64,000 nucleotides of DNA from Mycobacteriales bacterium (GTDB lineage Bacteria; Actinomycetota; Actinomycetes; JADGOV01): the NCBI GenBank assembly GCA_038232055.1, contig JBBSIN010000001.1, positions 15,633-79,632 on the forward strand, read 5' to 3'. Of this stretch, positions 4,509 through 56,222 are shown piece after piece (the first letter of the stretch is position 1; the number at the start of each line of letters is the position of its first letter). The notes below the pieces were generated by a model. The model was not told where the DNA came from, searched no databases, and was given only the letters and a program-made list of their open reading frames with translations. The position numbers and the translations under genes are program-made.

Positions 4509-5719
4509 CGCGACTCGGCTGGTGGGACTGCTCGGCCGGCGCGAGCGGCGACATGTGCCTCGGCGCGCTCGCCGACGCCGGCGTACCGCTCGATCTCATG
4601 CAGTCGGCCATCGACGCCGTCGGCACCGAGCGGGTCACCCTCACCGCATCCGAGGTGGAGCGGCACGGCGTGGCCGCGACCAAGGTCGACGTCCACGCGC
4701 CGCGCACGGCGGTCGTGCGAACTTGGGCCAACGTCCGCGACGTCCTCGAGCACGCGAACATCGAGGAGCCGGTGCGCGCGGTCGCGCTCGGCGCGTTCGC
4801 CCGGCTCGCAGAGGCCGAGGCGGTCGCGCACCGGACGTCTCCGGAACTCGTGCACTTCCACGAGGTCGGCGGGCTCGACGCGATCGCCGACATCGTCGGC
4901 GCGGCCGCGGGCCTGCACGCGCTCGCGCTGGACCGGATGACCGGCTCGGCGGTGACGCTCGGCGGTGGCATGGTCCGCGGGGAGCACGGGCTGCTGCCGG
5001 TGCCGGCTCCGGCGGTGCTCACGCTGCTCACCGCGGCCGGTGCGCCGGTCGTGGGCGGCCCGGCGCCGTACGAGATGTGTACGCCGACCGGCGCGGCCCT
5101 GCTCGCCGCCACGGTGACCCGATGGGGTCCGCTGCCGCCGATGCGGATCTCCGCCGTGGGCACCGGTGCGGGCGGCCGCGACGTGGACGAATTGCCGAAC
5201 GTGCTGCGGCTCGTCGTCGGGCTCGTCGTCGACCCGGCGGCCGGCGAGGAGGCCGCGACGGAGTCGAGCGCCGAGCCGCTGCTCATCGAGACGAATGTCG
5301 ACGACCTCGACCCGCGGCTGTGGCCGGCGGTGCTCGCTCGACTGCTCGACGCCGGGGCGGCCGACGCCTGGCTGACCCCGATCCTGATGAAGAAGGGCCG
5401 GCCGGCGCACACCCTCTCGGTACTCGTCGCGTCCGACCGGGCCGACGCCGCCCGCCGGGTGATGTTCACGGAGACGTCGACGATCGGGGTCCGGGAGCGG
5501 CGGGTGAGCAAGCGCGCGCTCGAGCGCGACGTCGTGGAGGTGCACCTCTCCGGGATCCGGATCCGGGTCAAGACGGCCCGGCTCGACGGCGAGATCGTCA
5601 ACGCCTCCCCCGAGTACGACGACGTGGCGGCGGCCGCCGTACAGCTCGGCCGGCCGATGAAGGCAGTCCTCGCCGCTGCGGTCGCGGCGGCCTCCGGAAT
5701 CCTCGACGGGGGCGCGTGA
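4505..5719 (+). CDS. larC: LarC-like nickel insertion protein (DUF111)
   Basis: N-terminus VTRLGWWDCSAGASGDMCLGALADAGV (the D-C-x-x-G-x-S-G-D-M signature) and C-terminal LTPILMKKGRP...TIGVRER. GTG 4505 overlaps the larB stop. Confidence 0.75.
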   Translation: MTRLGWWDCSAGASGDMCLGALADAGVPLDLMQSAIDAVGTERVTLTASEVERHGVAATKVDVHAPRTAVVRTWANVRDVLEHANIEEPVRAVALGAFARLAEAEAVAHRTSPELVHFHEVGGLDAIADIVGAAAGLHALALDRMTGSAVTLGGGMVRGEHGLLPVPAPAVLTLLTAAGAPVVGGPAPYEMCTPTGAALLAATVTRWGPLPPMRISAVGTGAGGRDVDELPNVLRLVVGLVVDPAAGEEAATESSAEPLLIETNVDDLDPRLWPAVLARLLDAGAADAWLTPILMKKGRPAHTLSVLVASDRADAARRVMFTETSTIGVRERRVSKRALERDVVEVHLSGIRIRVKTARLDGEIVNASPEYDDVAAAAVQLGRPMKAVLAAAVAAASGILDGGA

Positions 5720-6306
5720 ACCTCGTCGTCGCCGCTACCGCATTCGGCCTTCTGCTGCCTGCGGAGCTGCCGGACAAGACGCTCGTCGCGACGCTGGTCC
5801 TCGCGACCCGCTATCGGCCGCGGCCGGTCTGGGTGGGAGTGTCGCTCGCGTTTGCCGTGCAGAGCCTGACCGCTGTCGTCGCCGGCGGGCTGGTGTCGGC
5901 GCTGCCGCGCCGGCTCGTGTTGGCGGCCACGTCCGTCCTCTTCGCGGTCGGGTGCTACGTGCTGCTCTTTCGCTCCGAGTCGAAAGGAGTCGACGAGCCG
6001 GCGGCGGCCGTCGAGGGGCCGCCCACCGCCCGCCGGATCGCCGGGACCAGCTTCGGCGTCCTGTTCGTCGCCGAGTGGGGCGACTTCTCGCAGTTGCTCA
6101 CCGCCGGTCTAGCGGCACGCTTTCGCGACCCGGTCAGCGTCTTCGTCGGCTCGTGGGCCGCGCTCGCCGTCGTCGCCGCGGTGGCCGTGACCGCCGGTCG
6201 CGGGCTGCAGCGGGTGGTACCGCTCGAGAAGGTGCGCCGGGTTGCTGGAGTGCTCTTCGGCCTGCTCGCGGTGGTCACGGCCCTGCAGGCCGCCGGAGTG
6301 GGGTGA
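5716..6306 (+). CDS. UPF0016 / GDT1-TMEM165 family cation (Mn2+/Ca2+) transporter
   Basis: Two E-x-G-D-(KR)-(TS)-type motifs (ELPDKT, EWGDFSQ) in a 196-aa polytopic protein. GTG 5716 overlaps the larC stop. Confidence 0.7.
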   Translation: MNLVVAATAFGLLLPAELPDKTLVATLVLATRYRPRPVWVGVSLAFAVQSLTAVVAGGLVSALPRRLVLAATSVLFAVGCYVLLFRSESKGVDEPAAAVEGPPTARRIAGTSFGVLFVAEWGDFSQLLTAGLAARFRDPVSVFVGSWAALAVVAAVAVTAGRGLQRVVPLEKVRRVAGVLFGLLAVVTALQAAGVG

Positions 6307-6343
6307 GTGACCAGCGGAGTGGGGTAAGTGACCTGGGAAGATC

Positions 6344-6425
6344 GTCCGAGTGCCGGTCCGAGTGCCGGTCCGAGGAGATCATGCTCCTTGACCTGCGGAT
6401 ATATGACTGCTGCTCCTCGGACTGC
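6344..6425. repeat. Composite short tandem repeat element: (GTCCGAGTGCCG)x2.5, spacer containing ACCTGCGGA and ATATGA, then (TGCTCCTCGGAC)x2
   Basis: Read directly from the sequence. GTCCGAGGAG and CTCCTCGGAC are reverse complements, giving an inverted array. A sibling element lies at 17781-17910. Confidence 0.6.
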
Positions 6426-6490
6426 TCCTCGGACCGAGGCGGGCGGGGGGGCAGGGCGCGGGCAGGCCCCGGCGTGGGCAGGGCAGACGC

Positions 6491-6522
6491 CGACGGCCCC
6501 GCCGATTAGGGCGGGGCCGTCG
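6491..6522. terminator. GC-rich perfect hairpin (12-bp stem, 5-nt loop GATTA) between convergent genes
   Basis: GACGGCCCCGCC gatta GGGCGGGGCCGTC. Lies 32 nt beyond the stop of the minus-strand gene at 6553. No U-tract, which is common in high-GC actinobacteria. Confidence 0.5.
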
Positions 6523-6552
6523 GGTTGCTGCTGGAAGCCGTACCAGCCGGGA

Positions 6553-7434
6553 TCAGCGGGTGCGCTCCTCCGTGGCGGAGGTGGTGCCGCCATCCGGGTA
6601 GACGCCGCTGGTGCTCTCGCCGCCTTCGGTGTCGATCTGCTCCTTACGGACCTGCTCGCTCACCTCACGCTGGTCGGTGACGGTCTCCTTGTCGAGGCGT
6701 ACCCGCTCGACCGGGACGGTCTCCTTGTCGACGACCGGCCGCTCCTCGGTGAGGGTGATCTCGTGCTCCTCCTCGGACAGCCCGGGACCGGAGGTCGCCT
6801 GGCCGATGTTGGCATCGGTGATCGGCTCGCGCTCGACCCGCACCTCTTCCCGGCTGACCGGCACGGTCTGCGTGACGTTCTCGGTCACGACGTACTTCCG
6901 CAGCCGTGCGCGGCCGGTCTCGACCTGCTCCTTGCCGACGCTGAGCCGCTCCTCGGAGCGCGTCATCGCGTCGTCCGTCGTGGGCCCGCTGACGTCGCGG
7001 CCGACCGGTTCACGCCCGGTCGTGGTGCCCGTACCGGCAGTGCCGGAGGCGTAGGTTCCGGCGCCGGTGGCGCTCAGGTCGTCGCCGGTGGACATGCCCT
7101 CGGTCGTGGTCCGCGCGTGCGGGCCGGTGAGGCCGTAGTGCATGTACAGGCGGTCCTCCTCCTCGGGCGTGATCTCACCGTCCGGGTCGACGCCCGGCGC
7201 ATCCTTGACCAGGTCCTTGGGGTACGGGACCACGAGGTCGTCGTCGTCGACCCGTGCCTCGTCGAGCGGCACGAAGTTGGCCTTGCCGCCGAACATGCCG
7301 GTGTTGACCGTCACGAACGTCGGATGGCCGTCCTCGCGGTCGGCGTACATCTGGTCGATCTTGCCGATCTTCTGCCCGTCGTTGCCGACGACGGTGCGGC
7401 CGGCGAGGGTCTGGAAATCTTCCTGACCAAGCAT
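6553..7434 (-). CDS. PRC-barrel plus DUF2382 (YsnF/AvaK-like) stress-associated protein
   Basis: N-terminal PRC-barrel-like segment (TLAGRTVVGNDGQKIGKIDQMYAD...), a Gly/Thr-rich linker, and a C-terminal DUF2382-like repeat (LRKYVVTENVTQTVPVSREEVRVEREPI...). The first 290 codons of the track ORF are antisense to the epimerase gene and are rejected. Confidence 0.55.
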   Translation of the reverse strand: MLGQEDFQTLAGRTVVGNDGQKIGKIDQMYADREDGHPTFVTVNTGMFGGKANFVPLDEARVDDDDLVVPYPKDLVKDAPGVDPDGEITPEEEDRLYMHYGLTGPHARTTTEGMSTGDDLSATGAGTYASGTAGTGTTTGREPVGRDVSGPTTDDAMTRSEERLSVGKEQVETGRARLRKYVVTENVTQTVPVSREEVRVEREPITDANIGQATSGPGLSEEEHEITLTEERPVVDKETVPVERVRLDKETVTDQREVSEQVRKEQIDTEGGESTSGVYPDGGTTSATEERTR

Positions 7435-7545
7435 GCGGGCCCCTCCTTCTTCCATATGTTGGGGTTTGGTGCTGTCCCTGCCCCATCCCTGGGGTTGCGT
7501 AACCGTCGCACCGGCCTTTCCTGGGTGGCACGTACCGTCGCAGGC

Positions 7546-8637
7546 GTGCGCGTCCTCGTCACCGGCGGTGCCGGCTTCGTCGGCTCCCACGTCGTCGACG
7601 CACTGCTCGCCGGCGGAGACGCGGTCCGGGTCCTCGACGTGCTCCTGCCGGCGGCACACGGCATCGGTGAGGTGCCCGCGTACGTCGACCCGCGCGCCGA
7701 GATGGTCATCGGGGACGTCGGCGACGCCGATGTCGTACGCCGCGTGCTGACCGGCGTCGATGCGGTCTGCCACCAGGCGGCGATGGTCGGTCTCGGCGTC
7801 GACGTCGCCGACCTGCCCGCCTACGCCGCCAACAACGACCTCGGGACGGCGGTGCTGCTCGCCGGCATGGCCGAGGCCGGGGTGAAAAGCATGGTCCTGG
7901 CCTCCTCGATGGTCGTCTACGGCGAGGGCCGCTACACCTGCATCCACCACGGCGTGGTCCGTCCCGGACCGCGTGCCCGGGCCGACCTCGCGGCCGGACG
8001 CTTCGAGCCGCGGTGCCCGCGGTGCGGAGCCGACCTCGCCACGGCCGGCGTGCCGGAGGACGCGCCGCTCGACCCGCGCAACGCCTACGCCGCCACCAAG
8101 GTGGCGCAGGAGCATCTCGCCGCCGCCTGGTCGCTGTCCACGGGTGGCGCGGTCACGGCGCTGCGCTACCACAACGTCTACGGGCCGCGGATGCCGCGCG
8201 ACACGCCGTACGCCGGGGTCGCTTCGATCTTCCGGTCGGCGCTGGCGGCGGGCCGACCGCCGCAGGTATTCGAGGACGGTGGGCAGCGGCGCGACTTCGT
8301 CCACGTCCGCGACGTCGCGCGGGCGAACGTCGTCGCGCTGACCGCTCCGACGGCGCTAGCCGCGCCGCGGGACGGTTTCGCGGCCTACAACGTGGCGAGC
8401 GGCGAGCCACACACCGTGGCTGAGATGGCGGCGGCTCTCGCGGCGGAGTACGGCGGTCCGGCGCCGGTCGTGACCGGCGAGTACCGGCTGGGCGACGTCC
8501 GGCACGTGGTCGCGGACCCCGGTCGGGCGCAGCGCGAGCTGGGCTTGCGCGCCCGGGTCGACTTCGCCGAGGGGATGCGCGAGTTCGCGACCGCCCCGCT
8601 GCGCGGCGAGCCAGCGCCCGACCAAGCGCGCGGCTAA
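7546..8637 (+). CDS. NAD-dependent epimerase/dehydratase (SDR extended family) with a Cys-rich insertion
   Basis: [18 protein letters not shown] Rossmann N-terminus and a YAATK catalytic motif. Insertion CIHHG...CPRCG between the core strands. Confidence 0.75.
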
Positions 8638-10375: not shown

Positions 10376-11725
10376 TCACCATGGCGACACCACGACGGCC
10401 TGTACGGCGAGGGCGACGACGGCCTGCGCGGCGAGCCACGACCGGCCGCGTCCCGGCAGCGCGGCCGTGGCGACGAGGATCCAGGGCGCGAACGGCAGCC
10501 AGATCCGCTCCACCTCGCCGCGGGAGAAGCCGCCGAGGTCACTTACCGCGACCGCCAGCAGGGCCGCGCCGACGAGCAGCCACAGTCGTCGGTCACGGAG
10601 CCGGCTCAGGCCCGCGGCCGCCGCTGGACCGACGAGCACGGCCAGCAGCGCGAGGTCGCCGAGCAGGAAGTACCAGTAGAGCCGCCCTGCGCCGTGCCCG
10701 CGCGACCACTCGACGGAGGTGGCGGCGACTCCGGCCGGCCACCAGAAGCCGGCGACGGCGAAGGCGACGAAAACGGCAGCGAGCCCGGCGGCGGCGACGG
10801 CGAGCACGCGTGGCCGTCGCAGGCCGACCGCGAGCGCCAGCGCCCCGAGCGGCAGCAGGCCGTAGGACAGGAACAGCATGCCGCCGAGCAGCAGTCCGGC
10901 CGCGACCGCCGGCGCCGCGGCCCGGCGGCCGGTCGCGTGCGCCGCCACCGCGAGCAGCGCAACTCCCCACGCCGAGACGCCGAGGAAGAGAGCGTCCATG
11001 CTCGTCGCCACCCAGAGCGCGGCGGGCGCCAGCACGAGGAAGGGCAGCGTGCGCCGCGCCGCCGCCTCCCCGTCGAGCGTGCGTACGGTCACCGCCACCG
11101 CGGCCGCGGCCGAGGCCCCCGCGGCGATCACCACGGCGGCCTGCCAACCCGGGCCGGGCAGCCCCAGCCACTCGAGCAGCTTCACGACGAGCACCGGTCC
11201 CGGCGGGTGCCCGCGGGTATGCGTGGAGTAGCTCGGCAGGTCGGTCACGAAGGTGCGCAAAAAGGCGCCGACGCCGGAATCGAGCGCCGGCAGGGTCGTC
11301 CGGTAGTCCTCCACCCGGGCCAGCGGAGCGCTGAGCCGGGCCCAGCCATCGCTCGCGGCGAGCGCCACCGCCCAGAGGGCCGTCGCGCCCCAGGACGCGG
11401 CGAGAAGCTGTCGCCAGCGCAGCCGCGCGGCGGCGACCGGGCCGAGACCCACGACGAGGGCGGCTACCGCGACCGCGGGAAGCAGCGACAGCCCGGGCCG
11501 CACGTCGACCTGACCGATGAACGGAGGAAGTGGCCCGACGAAGAGGTTCGTGCCCGGCTGGAGCAGCTGGCCCCATGCGACGGCAGCACCGATCAGCACC
11601 AGCCAGGCCGACACCGCAAGAACGACCGGACCACGCCGACGGGCGCCATCGCGGGCACGCGGAAACGTCGCGGCGTGCAGCGTCGCGACCATGGCGCGAG
11701 CGTAGGCGGAGATGGCGCCCGTCAC
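10376..11725 (-). CDS. Polytopic integral membrane protein, possibly a GT-C-type glycosyltransferase
   Basis: About 12 predicted TM segments, rich in Ala, Leu and Trp. Divergent neighbour of the GT2, DUF2064 and methyltransferase genes. The start codon is uncertain (GTG 11725 or ATG 11692). Confidence 0.45.
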   Translation of the reverse strand: MTGAISAYARAMVATLHAATFPRARDGARRRGPVVLAVSAWLVLIGAAVAWGQLLQPGTNLFVGPLPPFIGQVDVRPGLSLLPAVAVAALVVGLGPVAAARLRWRQLLAASWGATALWAVALAASDGWARLSAPLARVEDYRTTLPALDSGVGAFLRTFVTDLPSYSTHTRGHPPGPVLVVKLLEWLGLPGPGWQAAVVIAAGASAAAAVAVTVRTLDGEAAARRTLPFLVLAPAALWVATSMDALFLGVSAWGVALLAVAAHATGRRAAAPAVAAGLLLGGMLFLSYGLLPLGALALAVGLRRPRVLAVAAAGLAAVFVAFAVAGFWWPAGVAATSVEWSRGHGAGRLYWYFLLGDLALLAVLVGPAAAAGLSRLRDRRLWLLVGAALLAVAVSDLGGFSRGEVERIWLPFAPWILVATAALPGRGRSWLAAQAVVALAVQAVVVSPW

Positions 11726-16324: not shown

Positions 16325-17539
16325 GTGAGCGAAGCGCGGCATCGCGTCGACAGCGAGGTGGGGCGCCTGCGGACGGTGCTGCTGCACCGGCCCGGCGCGG
16401 AGCTCAAGCGGCTCACCCCGCGCAACAACGACGAGCTGCTCTTCGACGGCATCCCGTGGGTGGACCGTGCACAGGCCGAGCACGACGCCTTCGCGGCCCG
16501 GCTGCGCGACCGTGGCGTCGAGGTCCTCTACCTCGCCGAGCTGCTCGCCGAGACACTCCAGGAGGCGGCGGCTCGCGAGCACGTGCTCGACAGCGCGCTG
16601 GTCCCCGGTGCGATCGGGCCGACGCTGGCGCGGGAGCTGCGCGGCTACCTCGGGGAGCTCACGCCGTACGACCTGGCCGAGGTGGTCATGGCCGGGATGT
16701 CGCACGAGGAGCTGCCGTTTACCGGCGGGGTCGTCGATCGGATGACCGGGGTCGACGACTTCGTCATCCGGCCGCTCGCCAACCTGCTGTTCACCAGGGA
16801 CTCCAGCGTGTGGGTCGACGCCCAGGTCGCCGTCACCCAGCCGTCGATGCCGGCGCGGCGTCGGGAGAGCGCGGTGACCGGCACGATCTACACCTACCAT
16901 CCGCGTTTCGCGGGAACGCCGTTGCTCTACCGCGGGCATCCGGACGACGAGGCCTGGCTGGAAGGCGGTGACGTGCTCGTTCTCGCGCCGGGCGTCCTCG
17001 CGGTCGGCGTCGGGCAGCGGACGACGCCGGCTGGAGTCGAGTCGTTTACGCTCCGCGTCTTCGCCGCGGGCGTGGTCCACACGGTGCTCGCCGTGCCGAT
17101 CGAGCAGGGCCGCGCGACGATGCATCTCGACACCGTCTGCACGATGGTGGACCGTGACGCCGTCGTGATGTACCCGCCGGTCGCCGACACGCTCGCGGCG
17201 TACGTCCTCACGCCCGCCGGGGCCGGCGGCGTACGGGTCGACGGGCCGGAACCCTTCCTGGTGGCGGCCGCCAAGGCGATGGGGATCGACACGCTGCGGC
17301 TCATCGACACCGGGCTCGATCCGATCACCGCGGAGCGGGAGCAGTGGGACGACGGCAACAACACGCTGGCGATCGCGCCGGGTGTCGTCGTCGCGTACGA
17401 ACGAAACACCGAGACGAACGCTCGTCTCGCCGACGCCGGCATCGAGGTCATCGCGATCGCGGGCAGCGAGCTGGGCAGTGGGCGCGGTGGGCCGCGGTGC
17501 ATGTCGTGCCCGATCCTGCGCGACCCGCTAACCGACTGA
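16325..17539 (+). CDS. arcA: Arginine deiminase
   Basis: 404 aa. Conserved ADI blocks ([32 protein letters not shown]) and the catalytic Cys near the C-terminus ([10 protein letters not shown]). Confidence 0.85.
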
Positions 17540-17566
17540 GCCCCCGGTCAGGCAACCTGCCGACGA

Positions 17567-17660
17567 CGGTCCTGACGACCGGTCCTGGCGACCGGTCCTG
17601 GTGACCGCCGCCACTTGACCGCCGCCACTTGACCGCCGCCACTTGACCGCCGCCGAACCA
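17567..17660. repeat. Tandem repeats: (CGGTCCTGRCGAC)x3 followed by (CGCCGCCACTTGAC)x4
   Basis: Seen directly in the sequence, in the 640-bp non-coding gap between the convergent arcA and anti-sigma-factor genes. Confidence 0.7.
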
Positions 17661-17780
17661 GCGATCTCCTTCGCTCGCCGTGTGGTGGCTGGGGATCGGT
17701 TCTGGAGATCGTTAGGCGACAATGGCGCACGCGAAGGAGATCGTTCAGCCGCCGGAGGTCGTCGGAGGGCGCGTCCCAGT

Positions 17781-17910
17781 GATCGTCCGAGGAGCTGTCC
17801 GAGATCGTCCGAGTGATCGTCCGAGGAGACGGCGGCGTACCACCTGCGGAAACGGCCTCGAAATTCCTCGGACACGTGCTCGGACACGTGCTCGGACAAG
17901 TGCTCGGACA
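17781..17910. repeat. Composite element: four GTCCGAG copies, spacer containing ACCTGCGGA, then four CTCGGAC copies (as CACGTGCTCGGACA x3.5)
   Basis: Same inverted heptamer-array architecture and shared spacer motif as 6344-6425. Confidence 0.65.
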
Positions 17911-17949
17911 ATCTTGGTGACGGCCGGCGCCTGTCACCGGACTTCGAAC

Positions 17950-18020
17950 CGAGCGGCTGGCCGCTCAGAGAAACCGCTCAGAGAAGCCGCCCACAAGCCG
18001 CCCAGAAGCCGCCCAAAGAA
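17950..18020. repeat. Tandem repeats: (CCGCTCAGAGAA)x2 and (AAGCCGCCCA)x3
   Basis: Seen directly in the sequence. Confidence 0.6.
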
Positions 18021-18179
18021 AAGGCCCGAGCGCCACCGACGGGGGATGCGGCAGCGCTCGGGCACTTCTAGGGTAACCCGTCGGCGGGAAATGTAACCCC
18101 GCCATTCGGGTCACGCTGTGGTGTCGCATGACGGCGGCGCCGGATTCCGTGGGGTGTCGCGTGGCGACGTGGCGCCGGG

Positions 18180-18656
18180 TCAGACCGCGGCGGCGACTTT
18201 GTCGGCGGATGCTAGTTCCACGGTCGCCCAGACCGTCGTCTCGCGCCCACCGCGGTCGCGCTGGACTCCCCACTCGCCGCAGAGCGCCTCGACGATGGAC
18301 AGGCCGCGACCACCCGTGGCGGACTCGGACACGCTTCGGAGGGCCGGCATCGTGACACCGCCGCCGTCGGTGACGGCCACGGACAAGACTGATCCGCCGA
18401 GGCGCCATTCCACGCCGACCGTGCCGTCCGGCAGGGCGTGCGCGTGCCGCAGCGCGTTGCCCATCAGTTCGGAGAGCACGATCATGGCGTCGTCGACGAC
18501 GGGCGCCGGTACCCCGGTCCGGCCGAGTTGGCCGCAGACGAGCTGCCGGGCGAGCGACGCGCTGTCCAGCGCGTACGGCAGGGACAGGACGGCCATGAAC
18601 CGTTCCACCCCCGTCGGGCAGCCTGTCAGAGTCAGTGAGCCCAGGGTTCCCGGCAT
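18180..18656 (-). CDS. Anti-sigma regulatory factor (RsbW-like Ser/Thr kinase, HATPase_c)
   Basis: ...MIVLSELMGNALRHA...GGRGLSIVEAL... The start could also be ATG 18596. No cognate anti-anti-sigma or sigma gene is adjacent. Confidence 0.6.
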   Translation of the reverse strand: MPGTLGSLTLTGCPTGVERFMAVLSLPYALDSASLARQLVCGQLGRTGVPAPVVDDAMIVLSELMGNALRHAHALPDGTVGVEWRLGGSVLSVAVTDGGGVTMPALRSVSESATGGRGLSIVEALCGEWGVQRDRGGRETTVWATVELASADKVAAAV

Positions 18657-20198: not shown

Positions 20199-21562
20199 CT
20201 GGTGCGTCGTTCCAGCGGTGCCAGGGCGACCGTCGCGGCAGCCGCCACCATGAAGGAGAGCAGCGAGGCGCTCATCCAGGTCGCCGGGGCGAAGCCGACG
20301 GCGTCCGCCAGGCCGGTCCACCGGTCCCGCCACCATCCGATGTAGCCGGGGTTGACGAGCTGGTACGCCGCGAAGCCGAGCGCCCACGGCAAGATCATCA
20401 GCCAACGGGAGGGGGCGTGCTCGGAGACGTCCCACGAGCCGCTGCGGCGCAGCAGGTAGTAGTCGACGACGAAGACGGCGAACATCGGCACGAACACCGA
20501 GCCGAGCAGGACGAGGGAGTTGTAGTAGTCGCCGATGTCGAGGGTGAGCGCGGCCAGTGTGGCGAGCCCGCCGACCACCACGGCGAGCAGCCGGCGGTCG
20601 AGCAGCGGGCGCAGGTTCTGCACGGATACGACGGTCGAGTACGTGTCGGCAAAGCACTGGTCCAGCTCGCGCAGGACAAGGACGCCGAACGCCAGCCAGC
20701 CGACCGGCACGGCGATGAACGCGGCAAACACGTCGTGCTGCAGCACCCCGGCGTCGGCGCTCGCGCTGACCACCGTGGACAGCGCGATGAGCCCGAGCGC
20801 GTAGTAGGCGACCTGCGTGACGGCGTAGCCGCCGACCGCGCCGAGAAAGGCCGACCGCACGGTGCGCGAGTGTCGCGAGTAGTCGCTGGCGAGCGGGACC
20901 CAGGAGACCGCGACCGCGATCGCGAAGTCGGCAGCGAGCCAGAAGTCGCCCCAGGACCCCCTGGTCAGCGACGGCAGCGGGTTGCGGAGCAGCTGAACGT
21001 AGAGGTACGCCGTCGCGACGAGCACGGCACCCAGCGCGTACCGGCGGAGCACCCGGACCGCGCCGAGGGGTCGCAGCGCCATCAGCGTCGCGAGCGTCCC
21101 GGCCGCCACGACGTAGGGCCAGCGAGCGCCGTGCCACGGCAGCAGCTGCTGGGCCGCCGAGGTGATCACGACGATCTCGAAGATGGTCCAGCCGACGAGC
21201 TGCAGCACGTTGAGGACGGTCGGCAGGTACGACGCGCGCACCCCGAGCAGCCCCCGCAGCAGCACCATGGACGGTGCGCCGGTGCGCGCCCCCGGCACCG
21301 CGGCCAGCCCGATCAGCAGCGAGCCGAGGAGCGTGCCGACGACGAGCGCGACGAACGCCGCCACGAGTGAGAGCTGCGCGCCACCGGTCGGGGCGAGCAG
21401 GTAGATCGCGCCGACCGGCCCCAGCAGGCTGACCCCGAGGTTGCCCCAGAGCCCGAGCTGGTCGAGCAGGCTCAGCGTCCGCGGGGCCGGCTCGGCGAGG
21501 GTGTGCGGCGCCTCGGCGGCGCTGCGTCGGTTCCGGGTGTCCTGCTCGACGACAGTCGACAT
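20195..21562 (-). CDS. cytX: NCS1-family permease, putative hydroxymethylpyrimidine transporter CytX
   Basis: 455-aa protein with 12 TM segments, of the cytosine/purine permease type. Sits between a TPP riboswitch and tenA. Confidence 0.7.
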   Translation of the reverse strand: MSTVVEQDTRNRRSAAEAPHTLAEPAPRTLSLLDQLGLWGNLGVSLLGPVGAIYLLAPTGGAQLSLVAAFVALVVGTLLGSLLIGLAAVPGARTGAPSMVLLRGLLGVRASYLPTVLNVLQLVGWTIFEIVVITSAAQQLLPWHGARWPYVVAAGTLATLMALRPLGAVRVLRRYALGAVLVATAYLYVQLLRNPLPSLTRGSWGDFWLAADFAIAVAVSWVPLASDYSRHSRTVRSAFLGAVGGYAVTQVAYYALGLIALSTVVSASADAGVLQHDVFAAFIAVPVGWLAFGVLVLRELDQCFADTYSTVVSVQNLRPLLDRRLLAVVVGGLATLAALTLDIGDYYNSLVLLGSVFVPMFAVFVVDYYLLRRSGSWDVSEHAPSRWLMILPWALGFAAYQLVNPGYIGWWRDRWTGLADAVGFAPATWMSASLLSFMVAAAATVALAPLERRTR

Positions 21563-21563
21563 G

Positions 21564-21656
21564 CGCGCTCCCTACGCCGGCATTACCCGGACAGGTTCGG
21601 CGGTCGGCGACCCGGTCAATCGCCCTCTCAGCCCGGTCGGTCCGAGCTCCCGCGAA
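21564..21656 (-). promoter_or_regulatory. TPP (THI-box) riboswitch
   Basis: Minus-strand RNA ...ACCGGGCUGAGAGGGCGAUUGACCGGGUCGCCGACCGCCGAACCUGUCCGGGUAAUGCCGGCGUAGGGAGCGCGCAUG carries the canonical CUGAGA and ACCUG..CCGGGUAAUGCC..GGGA blocks. The SD-like GGGAG sits inside the closing helix, 7 nt from the AUG. Confidence 0.8.
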
Positions 21657-21681
21657 TGTCAGCCAGCGTACGCCGCGCCGG

Positions 21682-33375: not shown

Positions 33376-33469
33376 GGAGGCTTCGCCTAGTCCGGTCTAT
33401 GGCGCCGCACTGCTAATGCGGTTGGGGGCTTCAACCCCCTCCCGGGTTCAAATCCCGGAGCCTCCGCCA
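33376..33469 (+). tRNA. tRNA-Ser (anticodon GCU), long variable arm, encoded CCA
   Basis: Manually folded. Acceptor GGAGGCT/AGCCTCC, anticodon loop CUGCUAA, variable arm of 20 nt, T-loop TTCAAAT. Confidence 0.85.
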
Positions 33470-34039: not shown

Positions 34040-34225
34040 ATCACGGGATCTCTGCAGCCAACCAGGACAGCACAGCGCCTGACGGGAACCAGCGAGAAAA
34101 GCGCGCTGGTTCGCCAGGCCCTGCGGGCGTTGATCGAGCGCGAGAGCGCACGGCGCCTGTCTCAACTAGCCGGTAGCGAACCTGGCGCGAAGGCGATCCC
34201 GAGACGGCGAACCACGGCTGCGTGA
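34040..34225 (+). pseudogene. vapB: vapB-type RHH antitoxin, 5'-truncated or degenerate (no canonical start codon)
   Basis: The in-frame product ...AQRLTGTSEKSALVRQALRALIERESARRLSQLAGSEPGAKAIPRRRTTAA* matches the C-terminal two-thirds of actinobacterial VapB antitoxins. There is no in-frame ATG, GTG or TTG between the upstream stop and the conserved LTG block. The stop overlaps the vapC GTG. Confidence 0.5.
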
Positions 34226-34599
34226 TCCTCGTCGACACCTCCATCTGGATCGACCACCTCCGCGTCGGCGATCGGAAGCTCTCTGCACTTCTCTGGGACG
34301 GCCACGTACTGTCCCACCCGTTGGTGGTAGGCGAACTCGCACTTGGCCCACTCAGTCGTCGCAGCGAGATCCTCGGGCTCCTCCGCAACCTTCCGCAAGC
34401 GAAGGGTGCGACGGACGCCGAGGTGCTGAACCTCGTCGAGAATCAGCAGCTGTTTGGGCTCGGCATCGGTTACGTCGACGCGCACCTGCTGGCCGCGACG
34501 ATGCTGACAGCAGGTGCAGGCTTGTGGACGCGCAACAAGAAACTCGCGGCGGTCGCCACTCACCTCGGGCTCACCAGCCACCAGGCGCCGAGGGTTTGA
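34222..34599 (+). CDS. vapC: VapC toxin (PIN-domain RNase)
   Basis: MILVDTSIWIDHLR...GELALG...DAHLLAATM. The PIN acidic residues are present. GTGA overlap with the vapB stop. Confidence 0.8.
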   Translation: MILVDTSIWIDHLRVGDRKLSALLWDGHVLSHPLVVGELALGPLSRRSEILGLLRNLPQAKGATDAEVLNLVENQQLFGLGIGYVDAHLLAATMLTAGAGLWTRNKKLAAVATHLGLTSHQAPRV

Positions 34600-34764: not shown

Positions 34765-34923
34765 CTACCCCTGAGGCTCCGGCGCCGTGTCGTCGCCCTC
34801 GTTGGCGCCGACGGCCTCCTCGGCCGCCTCGCCACCGGTGCTCTCGTCGCCGAGACTGGTGTCGAAGCCGGCGCTGTCGAGGTCGCGGCCGGGGGTGTCG
34901 TTGCCCTCGGTCGGTGTGGTCAT
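34765..34923 (-). CDS. Small acidic protein (52 aa), hypothetical
   Basis: Perfect SD AAGGAGG 7 nt upstream of ATG 34923. Product MTTPTEGNDTPGRDLDSAGFDTSLGDESTGGEAAEEAVGANEGDDTAPEPQG with strongly GC-biased third positions. A + strand ORF also overlaps this region and was not chosen. Confidence 0.4.
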   Translation of the reverse strand: MTTPTEGNDTPGRDLDSAGFDTSLGDESTGGEAAEEAVGANEGDDTAPEPQG

Positions 34924-35031
34924 TGATGCCTCCTTGCTAGGAACGCTCGAGTTGGCAGGAACGCTCGCGCTTGGCAGGAACGCTCGCGGCTAGTGTTCAC
35001 CCCGTCGACAGCACACGCCGCGGGAGGGTGC

Positions 35032-46424: not shown

Positions 46425-46497
46425 GCGCTCGTAGCTCAACGGATAGAGCATCTGACTACGGATCAGAAGGTTGGGGGTTCGAGTCCCTCCGAGCGCG
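46425..46497 (+). tRNA. tRNA-Arg (anticodon ACG), no encoded CCA
   Basis: Manually folded. Acceptor GCGCTCG/CGAGCGC, anticodon loop CUACGGA, T-loop TTCGAGT. Confidence 0.85.
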
Positions 46498-46658
46498 CTG
46501 AGTAAGTCCAGGTCACAGCGTTGCAGCGTTGCGCTCCGGTCACCGAGAGCCGCTCGCTTCTACCGGATCTTCTACCGGATGACGCGAGACGAGCCGGTAT
46601 GAAGCAGTAGAGAACTAGACGGAGCCCCCGCTCCGCTGTCTCGCAGGCCCCGAGCGAA

Positions 46659-48607
46659 ATGCAAGTGCGCATACGTGTGTCGCAGCCGGCGTGTACAACC
46701 GATGGCGTGCCTTGGGAGCCCACACCCGAGCAGCAGGCCATCATCGAACACGATTTGGGTCGTCACGCGCGCGTGCTCGCCGGGCCCGGCACGGGCAAGA
46801 GCGCCACCGTCATCAGGATGATGCTCCGAGCGGCCGAGCAGCTCGGTCGCCGAGGCAAGCTCCTCACGTTCACGCGGGCGGCCACAAACGAGCTCCGCGA
46901 GAAGGTCGCAGAGCATCCAGAGCACCTGGCGACGCCGAGCACGGTGCACTCGTTCTCGATCGCAACCCTTCTCGCCAACGAAGGAACCAGCGGCCTGCCG
47001 GAGCCGATTCGGCTTGCCGACGATTGGGAGTGGTCGGAGCTGATCCGCCAGCACCTCAAGGTCTTGGTGGACTGCGACGTCCGAATGATCGACCGGGCGC
47101 GGGCAGAGATGGCGTCGAACTGGGAGTCCCTCGAGCCAGCCGAAGACCCAGACCTGCCCGAGGACGTGCGCAACCGATTCGCCGGGATCTGGGAGCACCA
47201 CCGTCGGGTCTTCGGCTACGCGTTGCTCGCCGAGCTGCCGTTTCGACTTCTTCGCGCGCTCGAAGACCATCCCGATCTCAACATCGGGGACTGGGAGTAC
47301 CTGGTCGTGGACGAGTACCAGGACCTCAACCAGTGCGATCTGTCTGTCCTGAGGCAGATCACCCACCGCGGCCGAGTCCTGGTGGCCACGGGCGACGACG
47401 ACCAGTCGATCTACTCGTTCAGGCGGGCGCACCCAATCGGCATCCGGCGCTTCGTTACCGACGACTATCCGACGGCGGCTGATCTCACGCTCACGATCAG
47501 CCAGCGATGCGCAACACAAGCGCTCGCATGGGCTCGACACGTCATCGAAGGGCTACCCGGGAGACCGCCACGGCCGGCCCTGAACCCCGCGCCGCATTGC
47601 GTGGAGGGCGTGGCCCGCTACCTTTGCTTCCCGAGCTGGCCACGGGAAGCGGACGGAGTGGCGCGCCTCGCCAAGTGGCTCATCGACAACCAGGGATCGC
47701 CCCCGAAGACATCGCGGTGATGTTCCGAAGCAACTTCAACAACGCTTGGTCGACGCCGTTGACGGAGCGACTGGAGCACTACGGCGTGCCAGTCATCAAC
47801 GCCGGAGCGGTCGCCGAGATGCTTGCCGATCCCGAGAATCGGCGATTGCTCGCCCTGGCACGACTCGTCGTTAACCGCGCGGACTCCCTGGCGTGGTGGA
47901 CACTTCTTCACCTAACACCGGGCGTCGGGCCCGTGGTCCGTGACCACTTCTACGACGGCGCCGAGCAGCACGGGCGCACCTTCGCGGGCCAACTCCTCAC
48001 CGAGCACGCGGATGACTTCCAGGGCCTCGGCGGAGCTTCGGCAACTCGGGTTCGCACCACCGTCAACGCGGCCATGGCGGTGACCGAAGCGGTCGACATC
48101 GAGGGAGCTGACCTTGGCGACGCGGGGTGGGGAGAGTGGCTGGTCGGCAATGCTGACGTGTTCGGCGGATGCAACGAGGACTTCGCCGAGCTCTTGCGGG
48201 ATCTTGATGGCTTGGTCGACAGGACGGAAGGTCTCGGGCGATTTCTCGGTCAGATCCAGCCCGTCGGCACGGACCTTCGCTCCGGTCGAGCCGCGGGCGC
48301 GGTCCGCCTCATGACTATGGCGAGCTCAAAGGGGCTCACTGTGAAGGCGGCGATCATCGTGGGCGTCGAGGAAGGCGTTGTGCCGCTCGCTGACCGCGAT
48401 CCCGGTGAAGAACGTCGCCTTCTCTACGTCGCGATGACCCGTGCCACTGACAACCTCTACGCAACTTGGTCGGGCCAGCGCACCGGCCCCACCGCTCGAA
48501 CCGGGGCTCCCCGTGTCGGCGCCGGACGCAATCGATCGCCCCTGCTTACGCATGGGCCGGTCCAGTCTGAGCACGGCAACGCCTACCTGGATGCCCTCGG
48601 CGCTTAG
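46659..48607 (+). pseudogene. UvrD/Rep-like SF1 helicase, frameshifted at a C5 run (~47700-47704)
   Basis: Frame A carries the Walker A (AGPGTGKSAT) and the LVVDEYQDLN motif. Frame B continues with GIAPEDIAVMFRSN and a UvrD_C block (...VGVEEGVVPL...LLYVAMTRA). The switch sits at GGGATCGCCCCCGAAG. Confidence 0.6.
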
Positions 48608-48650
48608 ACCCTCGGAAGGTCAGCGGACTGCGGGTTGACCGGCCCGTACA

Positions 48651-49583
48651 TCAGCAGCTGGCCGCTTGGTCCCCCGCCCGGCCTCTCAGGAGCCTCCAGA
48701 TCGGATTCGTGACGCTTCCAAAGACGTAGCGCTGCGCCTTCAGGAAGTTGAGGTTCTGGAAGCACTCGAGCGACGGCGTGCCATCGGCGTTTCGGAACCA
48801 CCCGTCCACGCCGCCGCGACTCGCCGTGGTCGTGCCGCCTCTGCCCGATTGGAGAATCAACACGTGCGAGTCATCGACAGGCACGTCGGCGAAGACGCTG
48901 ACTCGCCCGAACCGGTCGCGCTCGGCCATGGCCTTGACGGGCGTGTCGCTGGTGATCAGTTCGTCTCGGTCGAAATCCAACAGGGTCCACGCGAAGTCGT
49001 TGAGGAGTTCGGCGGTGTGTTGGCGGAGCGCGAGGACGACGCCGCCACCGACGATGCCTCTCGGCTCGCTACCGCCCAAGCGTGGTCCCCGAATGAGGTC
49101 GATCTGTTCGCGCGTGAGCGCTTGAACCTCGTCGTCCGTGAGTTCGGCGCGGACCCGGTCCAGAGTGGACGAGACGAAGCGCCGGAGGGCGTCGCCATGG
49201 CTCGGCACGCGCAACTGCTGGGCTGCCACGAACGCAGCAACGTCCTCGCGTCGCTCGTCAGTGAGCGCATCGACCCCTTGGGTGGCGAGAAGACGGAAGG
49301 CCGGCGCAGCGCAACTCTCGATGTTGGACAGAAGCCGTTCGACTGCTGTCCGGGCGAGGATCGGGTGGTCAAGGTCGTAGAGCCCCTCGGCGTAGGCGAC
49401 GTCCTTCGGCCTTGCCGTGACGTACTCGCCGGTCGTCTTGTCGAACACCCCGATCTGGCGCTTCGAGCCGAACTGGCGCAGGTACCACTGTGGAACGAAG
49501 TGATGCTTGCGCGGCTCCTGAATGACCGGGGCTTGAGGACGCTCTCCCGGTTGTGAGCGCCGTGCGGAGCGATCAGTGCTCAC
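48651..49583 (-). CDS. DUF4238-like protein (paralogue 1)
   Basis: Conserved N-terminal HHFVPQWYLRQF motif. The GTG at 49583 is the only in-frame start before the motif and overlaps the upstream stop (GTGA). The Arg-rich 5' extension in the track ORF is rejected. Confidence 0.5.
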   Translation of the reverse strand: MSTDRSARRSQPGERPQAPVIQEPRKHHFVPQWYLRQFGSKRQIGVFDKTTGEYVTARPKDVAYAEGLYDLDHPILARTAVERLLSNIESCAAPAFRLLATQGVDALTDERREDVAAFVAAQQLRVPSHGDALRRFVSSTLDRVRAELTDDEVQALTREQIDLIRGPRLGGSEPRGIVGGGVVLALRQHTAELLNDFAWTLLDFDRDELITSDTPVKAMAERDRFGRVSVFADVPVDDSHVLILQSGRGGTTTASRGGVDGWFRNADGTPSLECFQNLNFLKAQRYVFGSVTNPIWRLLRGRAGDQAASC

Positions 49584-50563: not shown

Positions 50564-50636
50564 CCGTCGTCAGTGTGCCGCGGAGTTCACCGCGCTCACC
50601 CGATGATTTCGTGTGTTCCCGGAGCCTCGGCGTTGC

Positions 50637-51845: not shown

Positions 51846-51862
51846 CTGCGGCCTCCTTAGCG

Positions 51863-52612: not shown

Positions 52613-52752
52613 GCTTCTGACTCTACACGGTCTACCGCTTGTGTCGCCACTAGCCAGACATCGTGGATGCGGGTACAGTCCACGCGCCGTTCTCCGAGCG
52701 GAGAGCACGAGCCGGAGGTTGTTCCGTGGCAGGACGCAGATCGCTACCGCTG

Positions 52753-53139: not shown

Positions 53140-53220
53140 CGCCGTGACCGACCACCTCTCCCACCCGGACGACCCACTGCCAAACAGACAAGTGCCCGCA
53201 AGCGGGAACGTGAGCGCGCC

Positions 53221-56170: not shown

Positions 56171-56222
56171 CGACGCGAGGCCGGTCGTTTCACGGCTGCC
56201 GCCGGGGGGCAGGCCGCTCGCC

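Follow-up and report, generated by a model that had tools for sequence, protein, structure and literature searches.

Two copies of a palindromic heptamer-array element between convergent genes of a Mycobacteriales bacterium

Two loci of the window analysed here (the whole stretch of 64,000 nucleotides of DNA of an uncultured, high-GC Mycobacteriales actinobacterium) carry the heptamer GTCCGAG in two opposed arrays around a common centre. Comparison of the two sequences supports the conclusion that both are copies of one structured palindromic element and not coincidental microsatellites. We tentatively read it as a lineage-specific, non-autonomous palindromic element, the heptamers of which may be phased binding sites for a putative oligomeric DNA-binding protein.

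Results

Architecture of the two loci

Locus 1 (6344-6434) comprises three forward and two reversed copies of GTCCGAG, locus 2 (17785-17909) four of each. The gene calls place both loci in gaps between convergent genes, as had been stated for locus 1 in the first-pass annotation of this DNA. Locus 1 is found in a gap of 246 bp (6307-6552) between a GDT1-family gene on the plus strand and a PRC/DUF2382 gene on the minus strand, locus 2 in a gap of 640 bp (17540-18179) between an arginine deiminase gene (plus) and a HATPase_c_2 gene (minus). The genes around both loci are ordinary and syntenic with those of relatives. The two cores, which are 11 kb apart, are in direct orientation, and both copies are oriented alike relative to the upstream gene, which for two loci only is not significant. 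Locus 1 is no assembly artefact, because an independent assembly (Logan SRR24807094, L001) matches it at 100% over 1462 bp. The parts of the two elements are the following.

6344..6374, plus strand: left arm of locus 1, three GTCCGAG at 6344, 6356 and 6368, 12-nt period (TRF)
6368..6422, plus strand: 55-nt core of locus 1, GTCCGAG-N16-ACCTGCGGA-N16-CTCGGAC, 0 mismatches
6391..6399, plus strand: central 9-mer ACCTGCGGA of locus 1, sequence read directly
6416..6434, plus strand: right arm of locus 1, two CTCGGAC at 6416 and 6428, 12-nt period, linkers identical
17773..17825, plus strand: left arm of locus 2, four GTCCGAG at 17785, 17797, 17807 and 17819, preceded by a degenerate copy, GTCCCAG, at 17773
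17819..17873, plus strand: 55-nt core of locus 2, colinear with the core of locus 1
17842..17850, plus strand: central 9-mer ACCTGCGGA of locus 2
17867..17909, plus strand: right arm of locus 2, four CTCGGAC at 17867, 17879, 17891 and 17903, 12-nt period

The left-arm unit of locus 1, GTCCGAGTGCCG, is repeated 2.6 times with 100% matches (TRF) and identical TGCCG linkers, the right-arm unit, CTGCTCCTCGGA, 2.1 times. Inside the central 9-mer of this locus lies CCTGCGGA, which equals the right-arm unit CCTCGGA with one inserted G. In locus 2 the left-arm steps are 12, 12, 10 and 12 nt with linkers that are not alike, and the right-arm unit, CTCGGACACGTG, is present in 3.7 copies. From centre to centre the steps are 12-12-24.5-23.5-12 in locus 1 and 12-10-12-24.5-23.5-12-12-12 in locus 2; the heptamer sites of both loci follow a lattice of roughly 12 bp, from which, taken strictly, the 10-nt left-arm step of locus 2 departs. 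The opposed arrays form inverted arms of 24-37 nt with 73-83% complementarity. The letters of both loci read as they had first been described, except that the AT-rich ATATGA is no spacer feature of the element, locus 2 being without it.

Conservation within the core and chance expectation

The layout GTCCGAG-spacer-CTCGGAC, which the two loci had been said to share, proved to be a common 55-nt core that aligns without gaps. The core motifs (GTCCGAG, ACCTGCGGA and CTCGGAC) are identical at 23 of 23 positions, with no indel and with both spacings at 16 nt. In contrast, the spacers are identical at 9 of 32 positions against a random expectation of 29% (motifs versus spacers, Fisher p = 2e-8), and the probability of 23/23 motif identity at the spacer identity rate is about 2e-13. 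All 13 heptamers are identical as well (13/13), though neither the sequence nor the length of the linkers is constant from arm to arm and from locus to locus. Because the motifs are identical throughout while the spacers match at the random level, constraint acts on the word, on the centre and on their spacing, and the sequence between them is free; therefore coincidental slippage is excluded. The first-pass annotation had itself named a lack of further genomic copies, together with two unrelated loci, as a sign of microsatellite-like slippage instead of an element; slippage is contradicted by the motif identity and the two identical 16-nt spacings. Fixed motifs and spacing amid randomised positions are a clean natural experiment, which marks the bases that matter.

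The whole 64-kb window contains 29 heptamers against 29.2 expected, so there is no overall excess, but 13 of the 29 are concentrated in the two loci, which span 91 and 125 bp. The pattern GTCCGAG-N16-ACCTGCGGA-N16-CTCGGAC has exactly two matches in the window, even with three mismatches allowed, and 0 in shuffles. A word-independent detector, defined as any 7-mer twice in tandem with its reverse complement twice in tandem within 120 nt, returned just the two loci in the window. It gave no hit in relatives (about 60 kb) and on average 0.02 per shuffle. Chance clustering of the heptamers is ruled out by these shuffle results and by the identity of the motifs only.

Flanking repeats and comparison with relatives

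Both gaps contain further repeats and hairpins, which are given here with their coordinates.

6294..6335, plus strand: 21-nt tandem duplication (CGGAGTGGGGTGAGTGACCAG / CGGAGTGGGGTAAGTGACCTG)
6436..6489, plus strand: G-rich filler with GGGCAGGG twice, between element and terminator, not in the orthologous gap of L128
6490..6523, no strand assigned: terminator hairpin common to the convergent genes, 14-bp perfect stem and 6-nt loop, aligned with L128 and L127
17556..17654, plus strand: 13-nt unit GACGACCGGTCCT in about 3 copies, then 14-nt unit TGACCGCCGCCACT in 3.8 perfect copies
17645..17760, no strand assigned: 'hairpin A', a second palindrome of unrelated sequence, with 30-nt arms at 17645-17674 and 17731-17760 that are 77% complementary and each contain AGGAGATC
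17961..18015, plus strand: short arrays, 13-nt unit CCGCTCAGAGAAA in 2.3 copies and 11-nt unit AAGCCGCCCAC in 2.9 copies
18024..18063, no strand assigned: conserved hairpin downstream of the arginine deiminase gene with the invariant loop CGACGGGGGATGC, orthologous in five lineages

In four relatives with arginine deiminases of 80-85% identity (L004, L005, L006 and L137) only 13-30 nt separate the stop codon from the conserved hairpin, compared with about 484 nt in the window. The gap of L128, the GDT1 protein of which is 71% identical, measures 57 bp and is essentially the hairpin alone, against 246 bp in the window; in the GDT1 relatives the terminator hairpin starts 15 nt past the stop codon. 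Before the hairpins this genome has about 185 extra bases on the GDT1 side and about 480 on the deiminase side, and the G-rich filler belongs to this lineage-specific extra DNA. At the orthologous sites, which the first-pass annotation had proposed to check, the elements are absent from the relatives, which have the conserved terminator hairpin only. As these alignments show, the DNA was added in this lineage alone, after the stop codon and ahead of a terminator hairpin of greater age. On the same comparison the hairpin at 6490..6523 is judged pre-existing, conserved in relatives and separate from the element, and the one at 18024..18063 likewise older than the element and separate from it. 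That the two copies delimit a composite transposon or an island was rejected, the 11-kb interval between them being syntenic with relatives that lack the sites.

Seven of the 12 perfect 10-22-nt tandem duplications of the window fall in the two gaps (886 bp). The first copy of the 21-nt duplication holds the final codons of the GDT1-family gene together with its TGA stop (6304-6306), which shows that short tandem duplication occurred in place at locus 1. The units of one arm often match each other perfectly down to their linkers, and for that reason arm length is taken to drift by slippage. Coding repeats were considered for the loci and rejected: none of the array periods of 10, 11, 13 and 14 nt, of which 13 and 14 nt are those of the arrays flanking locus 2, is divisible by 3, gene calling based on GC3 places no gene in either gap, and no ORF runs through the centre in parallel at the two loci.

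The heptamer pair resembles the stem of the local arginine deiminase terminator (GCCCGAG/CTCGGGC, loop with TGCGG) at 6 of 7 positions, although not colinearly; that the pair may have descended from this stem is a weak lead. ACCTGCGGA and GATCA-CTCCTT are reminiscent of the 16S rRNA 3' end, but in inverted order, for which reason this likeness was judged coincidental.

Search for further copies

No third copy was found in the 64-kb window by mismatch-tolerant scans for the core or by a scan for inverted 8-mer pairs, which also covered the relatives, nor is there a further copy in about 60 kb of relatives. A covariance model run over the window and the relatives returned the two loci only, the next match having E = 0.64. 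Among 185,579 species-representative genomes, which do not include the source genome, the core pattern has no real match; the two matches obtained are at chance level and come from unrelated phyla (Alloprevotella, Gemmatimonas). It has 0 matches in JGI metagenome contigs. Half-patterns and array patterns gave chance-level matches and no arrays in viral contigs, and both gaps gave no match in BLAST searches against plasmids and phages. Rfam yielded no match at the gathering threshold, and relaxing the cut-off to E <= 5 added nothing but noise of at most 15.6 bits, where the thresholds are 38-97.

Tandem GTCCGAG arrays as such are present in metagenomes with at least 120 matches, nearly all of them one-directional. 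None shares the architecture described here, and those inspected look like coding repeats in which Ser/Asp/Glu or Pro/Ser/Glu codons abound. The CTCGGACAnTGTCCGAG palindromes of one phage group have adjacent half-sites in another arrangement and were judged unrelated. Of the element family that had been suggested, two copies of one element remain, and none beyond these two was found in the window, the relatives and the public collections.

Comparison with known systems

By analogy, the closest described architecture is the iteron of the Streptomyces theta plasmid pWTY27, to which the rep/iteron loci of pFP1 and pFP11 are similar and in which a 7-8-bp word is found about five times each way. 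The pWTY27 origin contains five GTGGGAAC and five TTCCCAC, which is one word on opposite strands, within a discontinuous inverted repeat of roughly 105 bp; RepA multimers footprint the arms of this repeat (IR2) while the loop stays free, and other direct and inverted repeats are crowded around it, as they are around our element (PMC3583192). Measured against the published description of the pWTY27 and pFP11 origins, the element has the same opposed arrays of a single word (3+2 and 4+4). The word itself is different, however, and a central 9-mer at a fixed 16-bp spacing is undescribed for pWTY27. Moreover, the plasmid origin adjoins repAB, whereas the element is chromosomal, without a rep gene and in a syntenic setting.

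The clt loci of actinomycete conjugative plasmids and the postulated clt-like chromosomal sequences (clc), which TraB reads, are similar in their short words (7-9 bp), in their phased direct arrays with inverted repeats and in their location in non-coding DNA at gene 3' ends. Examples are the four TGACACC of pWTY27, the nine 9-bp repeats of pJV1 and the 8-bp repeats within a 14-bp direct repeat of pSVH1 (PMC3583192, PMC4447253). Phased direct repeats are also found in the element, with 7-bp words at a 10-12-bp period and the additional 13- and 14-nt arrays of locus 2. In contrast to clt loci, which have described words of 8 bp, the element is absent from close relatives and the window has no TraB gene; opposed arrays with a centre are no defining clt feature.

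REP, BIME and REPIN sequences resemble the element as small, non-coding, lineage-variable palindromic DNA between convergent genes near terminators, and as inverted doublets they can form long hairpins (PMC3733652). A REP unit is an imperfect palindrome of 20-40 nt with a stem of 5-13 bp, a short loop and, at one end, a conserved unpaired GTAG or CGTC tag (PMC3733652). The unit of the element is instead the non-palindromic GTCCGAG with linkers of 3-5 nt, and pairing is found between opposite arms only. GTAG is missing, and CGTC overlaps just 4 of the 13 heptamers, as (AT)CGTCCGAG. REP families number tens to thousands of copies per genome and have a RAYT gene flanked by the repeat; the 64 kb analysed here contain 2 copies of the element, and a Pfam scan of the called ORFs of the window revealed no RAYT or IS200/IS605-type gene.

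The ends of Mu, Tn7 and IS21-type transposons contain repeated short transposase-binding words, which share one orientation within an end and face the other way at the opposite end. Like a MITE or a transposon end the element is non-coding, present or absent between relatives and found at a harmless intergenic site. With regard to terminal inverted repeats, the opposed heptamer arrays could act as inverted ends; the outer ends of locus 2, GATCGTCCGAG and GATTGTCCGAG, match at 10 of 11 positions, and those of locus 1 are unmatched beyond the heptamer. No direct repeat brackets either element as a target-site duplication, the 21-nt duplication being tandem and one-sided, and similarity over the whole length is lacking (9/32 outside the motifs). 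The window yielded no parent IS with the ends of the element and no gene for a cognate transposase, and with about 90-150 bp the element is extremely short.

Plasmid centromeres such as R1 parC, P1 parS and TubR-tubC (12-bp iterons) have phased iterons around a core, on which a higher-order nucleoprotein complex is formed. The element likewise has two blocks of short iterons with a period of about 11-12 bp, which flank a distinct central segment. R1 parC and tubC have every iteron in direct orientation, and such centromeres adjoin par genes on plasmids, while the arrays of the element are opposed, outside a plasmid and without adjacent par genes.

Predicted folding and an RNA-level role

Both loci were folded as the first-pass annotation had proposed, and both copies are predicted to form long interrupted hairpins on either strand, with z-scores of -3.3 to -6.0 (plus strand: -3.3 and -6.0). 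The fold energies of the two strands are -52.4 versus -52.1 and -84.1 versus -81.4 kcal/mol. Equal folding on both strands is as expected of a palindrome at the DNA level. Cruciform extrusion is unlikely because the centre spans roughly 41 nt, which points to the binding of double-stranded DNA. Selection for pairing only would permit covariation and selection for a recognised word would not, and the heptamers are invariant in 13 of 13 cases.

On the basis of the folding predictions the element could also act at the RNA level, which we consider rather unlikely. It would then be part of the 3' UTR of the plus-strand gene or an independent small RNA, with a long interrupted hairpin and a conserved loop motif ACCUGCGGA, and could stabilise the mRNA, insulate the convergent genes from each other as an additional or bidirectional terminator, or offer a platform to an RNA-binding protein. 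Strong structures are predicted, and both copies lie in the same orientation between the plus-strand stop codon and the terminator, so that they would be transcribed as 3' UTR; recognition loops typically have such a conserved 9-mer within a 'loop' that is free elsewhere. However, the minus strand folds about equally well, and compensatory variation is absent from heptamers that are all of one sequence. A consensus scan of both gaps revealed no intrinsic terminator or U-tract, no sigma-70 promoter was found in them, and Rfam gives no family, E <= 5 included. The ancestral terminators persist downstream, the relatives do without the element, and an exact 16/16-nt spacing with free sequence would be unusual in a loop.

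Discussion

Four mechanisms had been offered in the first-pass annotation. An array of protein sites and a MITE/REP-like repeat fit best, the latter without strict REP membership. A hairpin of an ncRNA or insulator could apply but is disfavoured by the single sequence of all 13 heptamers, which do not covary.

A different cis-acting role at the DNA level, for the host or for a conjugative element, is an unlikely explanation. The element could be a clt-like chromosomal sequence (clc) read by a TraB/FtsK-type double-stranded DNA translocase of an actinomycete conjugative element, or a centromere-like or nucleoid-protein loading lattice. Actinomycete clt loci consist of 7-9-bp direct repeat arrays together with inverted repeats (PMC3583192, PMC4447253), and chromosomal clt-like sequences were proposed for chromosome mobilisation (PMC4170104, PMC11571958, PMC3429521). 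The 13- and 14-nt direct arrays of locus 2 and the conservation of the motifs only, which agrees with recognition by a protein, would fit such a role. The window has no traB/ftsK-like, rep or par gene, however, and its sole mobile island (46.4-64 kb) has a relaxase of the TrwC type and is therefore not of the TraB type. Described TraB recognition sequences are direct repeats, for which opposed arrays around a fixed centre are no stated feature. The sites are absent in the relatives, and two of them 11 kb apart would be an odd density for a sparse chromosomal signal.

It is improbable that the element is a neutral by-product, that is, hairpin-forming gap sequence grown by replication slippage and intrastrand template switching with motifs that have no reader, and as a full explanation this is strongly disfavoured. 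The perfect units within arms, the 21-nt duplication across the stop codon and the many unrelated 11-21-nt arrays in the same gaps are what such processes would leave behind, and opposed-array palindromes of other words are sporadic in unrelated metagenomic and viral DNA. The shared heptamer, the single-copy 9-mer and both 16-nt spacings amid randomised sequence stay unexplained (23/23, about 2e-13), and slippage is unable to homogenise a single-copy centre.

Very improbable is a site for site-specific recombination, either attP-like with arm-type sites or of the serine-integrase type with roughly 50 bp, of which the two direct copies could recombine: the att sites of large serine integrases resemble the 55-bp core in size and outline (outer inverted 7-mers, asymmetric centre) and the opposed arrays look like arm-type sites, but there is no adjacent recombinase, the only integrase is 33 kb away (50637-51845, tRNA-Arg island), the 11-kb interval is syntenic housekeeping DNA common to relatives without the sites, and ACCTGCGGA has no flanking inverted core-type sites.

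The rigid core is an inward-facing pair of GTCCGAG, each 16 bp from the central ACCTGCGGA, extended outwards by more heptamers on the roughly 12-bp lattice, direct in the left arm and inverted in the right. In the preferred reading as a protein-docking element, a putative sequence-specific protein would oligomerise along double-stranded DNA in two opposed arrays, comparable to Rep on the opposed iterons of actinomycete plasmids or to a transposase on the multi-site ends of transposons. The element would probably be selfish, non-autonomous DNA that settled where insertion does no harm, and the heptamer number per arm may alter by replication slippage between neighbouring words. Several observations speak against this reading. 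Only two copies are known from the window and the collections searched, neither element has a definable target-site duplication or sharp termini, and a comparison of the called ORFs of the window with Pfam gave no transposase, rep or traB gene near either locus. The conserved central 9-mer is unaccounted for by a simple transposon-end model, and the same orientation of both copies relative to the upstream gene would be predicted by an RNA model likewise.

More speculatively, and with some doubt, one could see here a new kind of actinobacterial nucleoprotein assembly site with a rigid 7-16-9-16-7 core, outward 12-bp-phased opposed arrays and a lineage-specific oligomeric reader. Either it would represent mobile DNA of a new, non-autonomous and very small class, or it would be a chromosomal signal for transfer or segregation that was acquired with a conjugative element; its arms would be VNTR-like.

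Judged from its sequence, the element appears confined to this lineage and is most likely the protein-docking site of a selfish or plasmid-like element. With just two copies in view and none in a relative, it has less practical weight. Strains probably differ in the number of heptamers per arm, which would make the arms useful strain markers. If the RNA reading were true, 3' UTRs would have gained about 0.2-0.5 kb of structured sequence before the ancestral terminator. If instead the protein-lattice reading is true, the element would be a compact sequence handle for finding a DNA-binding protein in an uncultured Mycobacteriales/Frankiales-like lineage, which could be a transposase, Rep-like or TraB-like. 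Opposed iteron arrays, which are known from the origins and transfer loci of actinomycete plasmids, would then also be dispersed in the chromosome.

Structure of the element

Both loci carry copies of GTCCGAG (left arm) and of its reverse complement CTCGGAC (right arm) around a common 9-mer. The opposed arrays, which the first-pass annotation had noticed from the sequence, are borne out by the positions of the sites at both loci.

Sites at locus 1 (6344-6434) and locus 2 (17785-17909)
6344, 6356, 6368: GTCCGAG, locus 1, left arm
6391: ACCTGCGGA, locus 1, centre
6416, 6428: CTCGGAC, locus 1, right arm
17785, 17797, 17807, 17819: GTCCGAG, locus 2, left arm
17842: ACCTGCGGA, locus 2, centre
17867, 17879, 17891, 17903: CTCGGAC, locus 2, right arm

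Over the whole window the heptamer is not enriched (29 copies vs 29.2 expected), and 13 of the 29 fall within these two short stretches. Exactly 16 nt lie on each side between the 9-mer and the innermost heptamers at both loci, and therefore the 55-nt core GTCCGAG-N16-ACCTGCGGA-N16-CTCGGAC matches twice without mismatch; shuffled sequences gave no match even with three mismatches permitted. A word-independent detector, which accepts any tandem 7-mer whose reverse complement stands in tandem no more than 120 nt further on, picked out these loci alone in the window (0.02 hits per shuffle) and had no hit in about 60 kb of relatives' sequence. Locus 1 is reproduced exactly in Logan SRR24807094, which was assembled independently. 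The finding is real and not random, and the evidence is stronger than had been noticed at first.

The cores of both loci align without gaps, with 23 of 23 motif positions but only 9 of 32 spacer positions identical (Fisher p = 2e-8); 29% spacer identity is expected at random for this composition. Measured from centre to centre, the steps run 12-12-24.5-23.5-12 in locus 1 and 12-10-12-24.5-23.5-12-12-12 in locus 2, so that all sites stand on a lattice of about 12 bp with one vacant position on each side of the centre. A degenerate copy, GTCCCAG, is found at 17773, one lattice step beyond the left arm of locus 2. The central CCTGCGGA equals the right-arm unit CCTCGGA with one additional G. The 12-nt units inside an arm are often perfect including their linkers (TGCCG, CTGCT and ACGTG, each twice), and these linkers vary in sequence and length between arms and between loci.

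The word AGGAGATC, common to both loci, occurs seven times in the window (1.4 expected), three times in the loci. GATC is found about seven times within 165 bp at locus 2 (17660-17825), where this G+C predicts about 0.4, and locus 1 has two (6340-6380). Both excesses may perhaps be part of the recognised sequence.

Genomic setting and orthologous sites

The window is a piece of actinobacterial chromosome (about 72% G+C), and the best protein matches of its genes are to uncultured Mycobacteriales/Frankiales-type assemblies. Genes were called from third-position GC and named by Pfam. Both loci lie between convergent genes.

Gaps and flanking genes
5716-6306, +: GDT1-family cation transporter, upstream of locus 1
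6307-6552: locus 1 gap, 246 bp
6553-8115, -: PRC/DUF2382 gene, downstream of locus 1
16325-17539, +: arginine deiminase, upstream of locus 2
17540-18179: locus 2 gap, 640 bp
18180-18608, -: HATPase_c_2 gene, downstream of locus 2

The 11 kb separating the loci are occupied by ordinary genes (two-component system, glycosyltransferases, molybdopterin oxidoreductase, short-chain dehydrogenase).

Syntenic contigs of relatives were retrieved via homologues of the flanking proteins. In four of them (L004, L005, L006, L137), whose arginine deiminases are 80-85% identical, a conserved hairpin follows 13-30 nt past the stop codon; in the window this hairpin stands about 484 nt past it.

Arginine deiminase 3' hairpin
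Window: 18024-18063
L004: 11238-11279
L005: about 1985-2021
L006: about 11253-11290
L137: about 1922-1960

Over the five lineages the loop of this hairpin, CGACGGGGGATGC, does not vary, and compensatory changes are seen in four pairs of its stem. Such conservation exceeds the need of a plain terminator, so the hairpin is possibly a structured RNA element of the 3' end or a loop that binds a protein. At the GDT1 site of another relative (L128, GDT1 71% identical) the gap measures 57 bp and is essentially one hairpin, GACGGCCCCGCC...GGCGGGGCCGT, which corresponds to 6490-6523 of the window, where about 185 additional bases precede it. The comparison of presence and absence proposed at the outset found the hairpins alone in these relatives. 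Their short distances from stop codon to hairpin indicate that both elements and the accompanying arrays are lineage-specific additions, each placed between the stop codon and an older terminator common to the convergent genes. Around the loci and between them the genes otherwise stand in the order of the relatives; therefore the pair does not bound an island.

In the closest relative (L127, 3595-4346) the GDT1-PRC/DUF2382 gap contains another insertion, peculiar to that lineage, of an ORF of 154 aa without annotation plus about 360 bp, so that this gap is a recurrent landing site for extra DNA.

Repeats packed around the loci

Both gaps are crowded with other short tandem arrays; seven of the window's 12 perfect tandem duplications of 10-22 nt sit in these 886 bp.

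Repeats accompanying the element
6294-6335: 21-nt tandem duplication, locus 1; copy 1 comprises the last GDT1-family codons and the TGA stop
17556-17654: 13-nt and 14-nt arrays, locus 2
17645-17674 and 17731-17760: arms of a second palindrome of unrelated sequence, locus 2
17961-18015: 13-nt and 11-nt arrays, locus 2

The second 21-nt copy has TAA where the first has TGA, and this is clearly an in-place duplication event. Most periods cannot be divided by three, and the arrays are therefore not coding repeats. A G-rich tract between element and terminator (6436-6489), missing from the orthologous gap of L128, contains several G runs and two GGGCAGGG octamers, an FtsK KOPS-like word; it is a G-quadruplex candidate.

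Other features of the window

A 19-nt unit, AGGAACGCTCGCGTTGGC, is repeated 2.7 times at 34939-34988 (TRF score 84) between a short ORF (34765-34923, -) and a zinc alcohol dehydrogenase gene (35032, +); it resembles an operator array. A TPP riboswitch (21552-21663, -; 55.6 bits) precedes a cytosine/purine/thiamine-type permease and a TenA gene in an ordinary arrangement. tRNA-Ser(GCT) (33376-33469) is followed by a patch of reduced coding density with a PIN-domain (VapC-like) gene (34222-34599), which may be a small toxin-antitoxin insertion. The only mobile island of the window follows tRNA-Arg(ACG) at 46.4 kb (46425-64000) and is lower in G+C (62-68%).

Genes of the island
50637-51845, -: tyrosine integrase
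53523-54842 and 54860-56170: TrwC relaxase, split into two ORFs
56223-59630: type I restriction hsdR
60223-61767: type I restriction hsdM

Together with a UvrD-like helicase fragment, two DUF4238 genes and HTH/excisionase-like genes, they probably represent a decayed integrative mobilisable element.

Searches for further copies

With spacers of 14-18 nt the core pattern gave two chance-level matches (Alloprevotella, Gemmatimonas) in 185,579 species-representative genomes, a collection which excludes the window's own genome, as the pattern did not retrieve its source, and none in JGI metagenome contigs. Arrays of three tandem GTCCGAG are frequent in metagenomes; among the matches listed nearly all run in one direction only, and the inspected ones read as coding repeats with many Ser/Asp/Glu or Pro/Ser/Glu codons. 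Neither gap had a BLAST match among plasmid and phage records, and an Rfam search of both loci gave none at either threshold. A covariance model of the 79-nt core recovered only the two loci among the window and relatives, and mismatch-tolerant scans revealed no solitary or degenerate copy. Of the proposed element family there thus stands the core shared by two loci, with no further copy in these searches.

Viral contigs gave chance-level half-matches and a phage group with adjacent CTCGGAC/GTCCGAG half-sites. These phages (IMG/VR contigs L130, L132, L133 and L135, about 63% G+C) carry several CTCGGACAnTGTCCGAG palindromes and additional GTCCGAG in an operator-like non-coding region; the half-sites agree but the layout differs, and the arrangement is probably unrelated to the element. 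The viral or plasmid-like contig IMGVR_UViG_2974727448_000001 (144 kb, 73-77% G+C) has, at two places, large opposed arrays of GGCCATCC-containing units with periods of 13-16 nt. The two places are mutually reverse complementary (L129, 4065-4226; L134, 2443-2604), which hints at a linear replicon whose terminal inverted repeats have the same array-then-inverted-array architecture in another word.

Interpretation

Among described architectures the origin of pWTY27, a Streptomyces plasmid, comes closest: there five GTGGGAAC and five TTCCCAC, one word on opposite strands, form a discontinuous inverted repeat of about 105 bp that is footprinted by RepA multimers with the loop left free (PMC3583192). 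Actinomycete clt loci likewise combine phased arrays of 7-9-bp words with inverted repeats (PMC3583192, PMC4447253), and chromosomal clt-like sequences read by TraB have been proposed (PMC4170104, PMC11571958, PMC3429521). Neither group can take in the element, since both call for an adjacent or cognate gene and the window has no rep or traB gene. Two options of the first-pass annotation fall in their strict sense: a REP/REPIN, as the unit is not itself palindromic and lacks a conserved GTAG or CGTC tag, and a MITE, as the copies show no target-site duplication and no similarity over their whole length (spacers 9/32).

We tentatively read the loci as a selfish non-autonomous element with phased putative protein-binding sites. 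An RNA-level 3' UTR hairpin is rather doubtful. Both loci do fold into the long interrupted hairpin suspected earlier (z-scores -3.3 to -6.0), on both strands alike (locus 1, -52.4 and -52.1 kcal/mol; locus 2, -84.1 and -81.4 kcal/mol). If base-pairing alone were selected, covarying pairs would be tolerated, yet GTCCGAG is kept by all 13 heptamers. An intrinsic terminator is rejected, since there is no U-tract and the orthologous terminators stand apart from the element. A cis site related to the host or to conjugation, to which the clt resemblance would fit, is unlikely. Pure slippage is improbable: it can homogenise units within an arm, but cannot maintain a single-copy centre or one word at two loci, and so leaves the shared core unexplained. 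A recombination site is very improbable.

Uniform heptamers, strand-symmetric folding energy, 12-bp phasing and a centre which, at 41 nt, is too long to extrude readily as a cruciform all suggest that a putative oligomerising protein recognises double-stranded DNA in a sequence-specific manner. Arm length would drift by slippage. With two copies visible, a partner protein that is only putative and nothing related found in the searches, the case is moderately interesting. The most fitting description is a palindromic heptamer-lattice element, specific to this lineage, which came to rest in two 'safe' 3' gaps. The loci are not recent copies, which would match in their spacers, nor old neutral copies, whose motifs would have decayed. 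Given also the limits of slippage, selection holds the word, the centre and the spacing; its target is the host or else the ability of the element to propagate.
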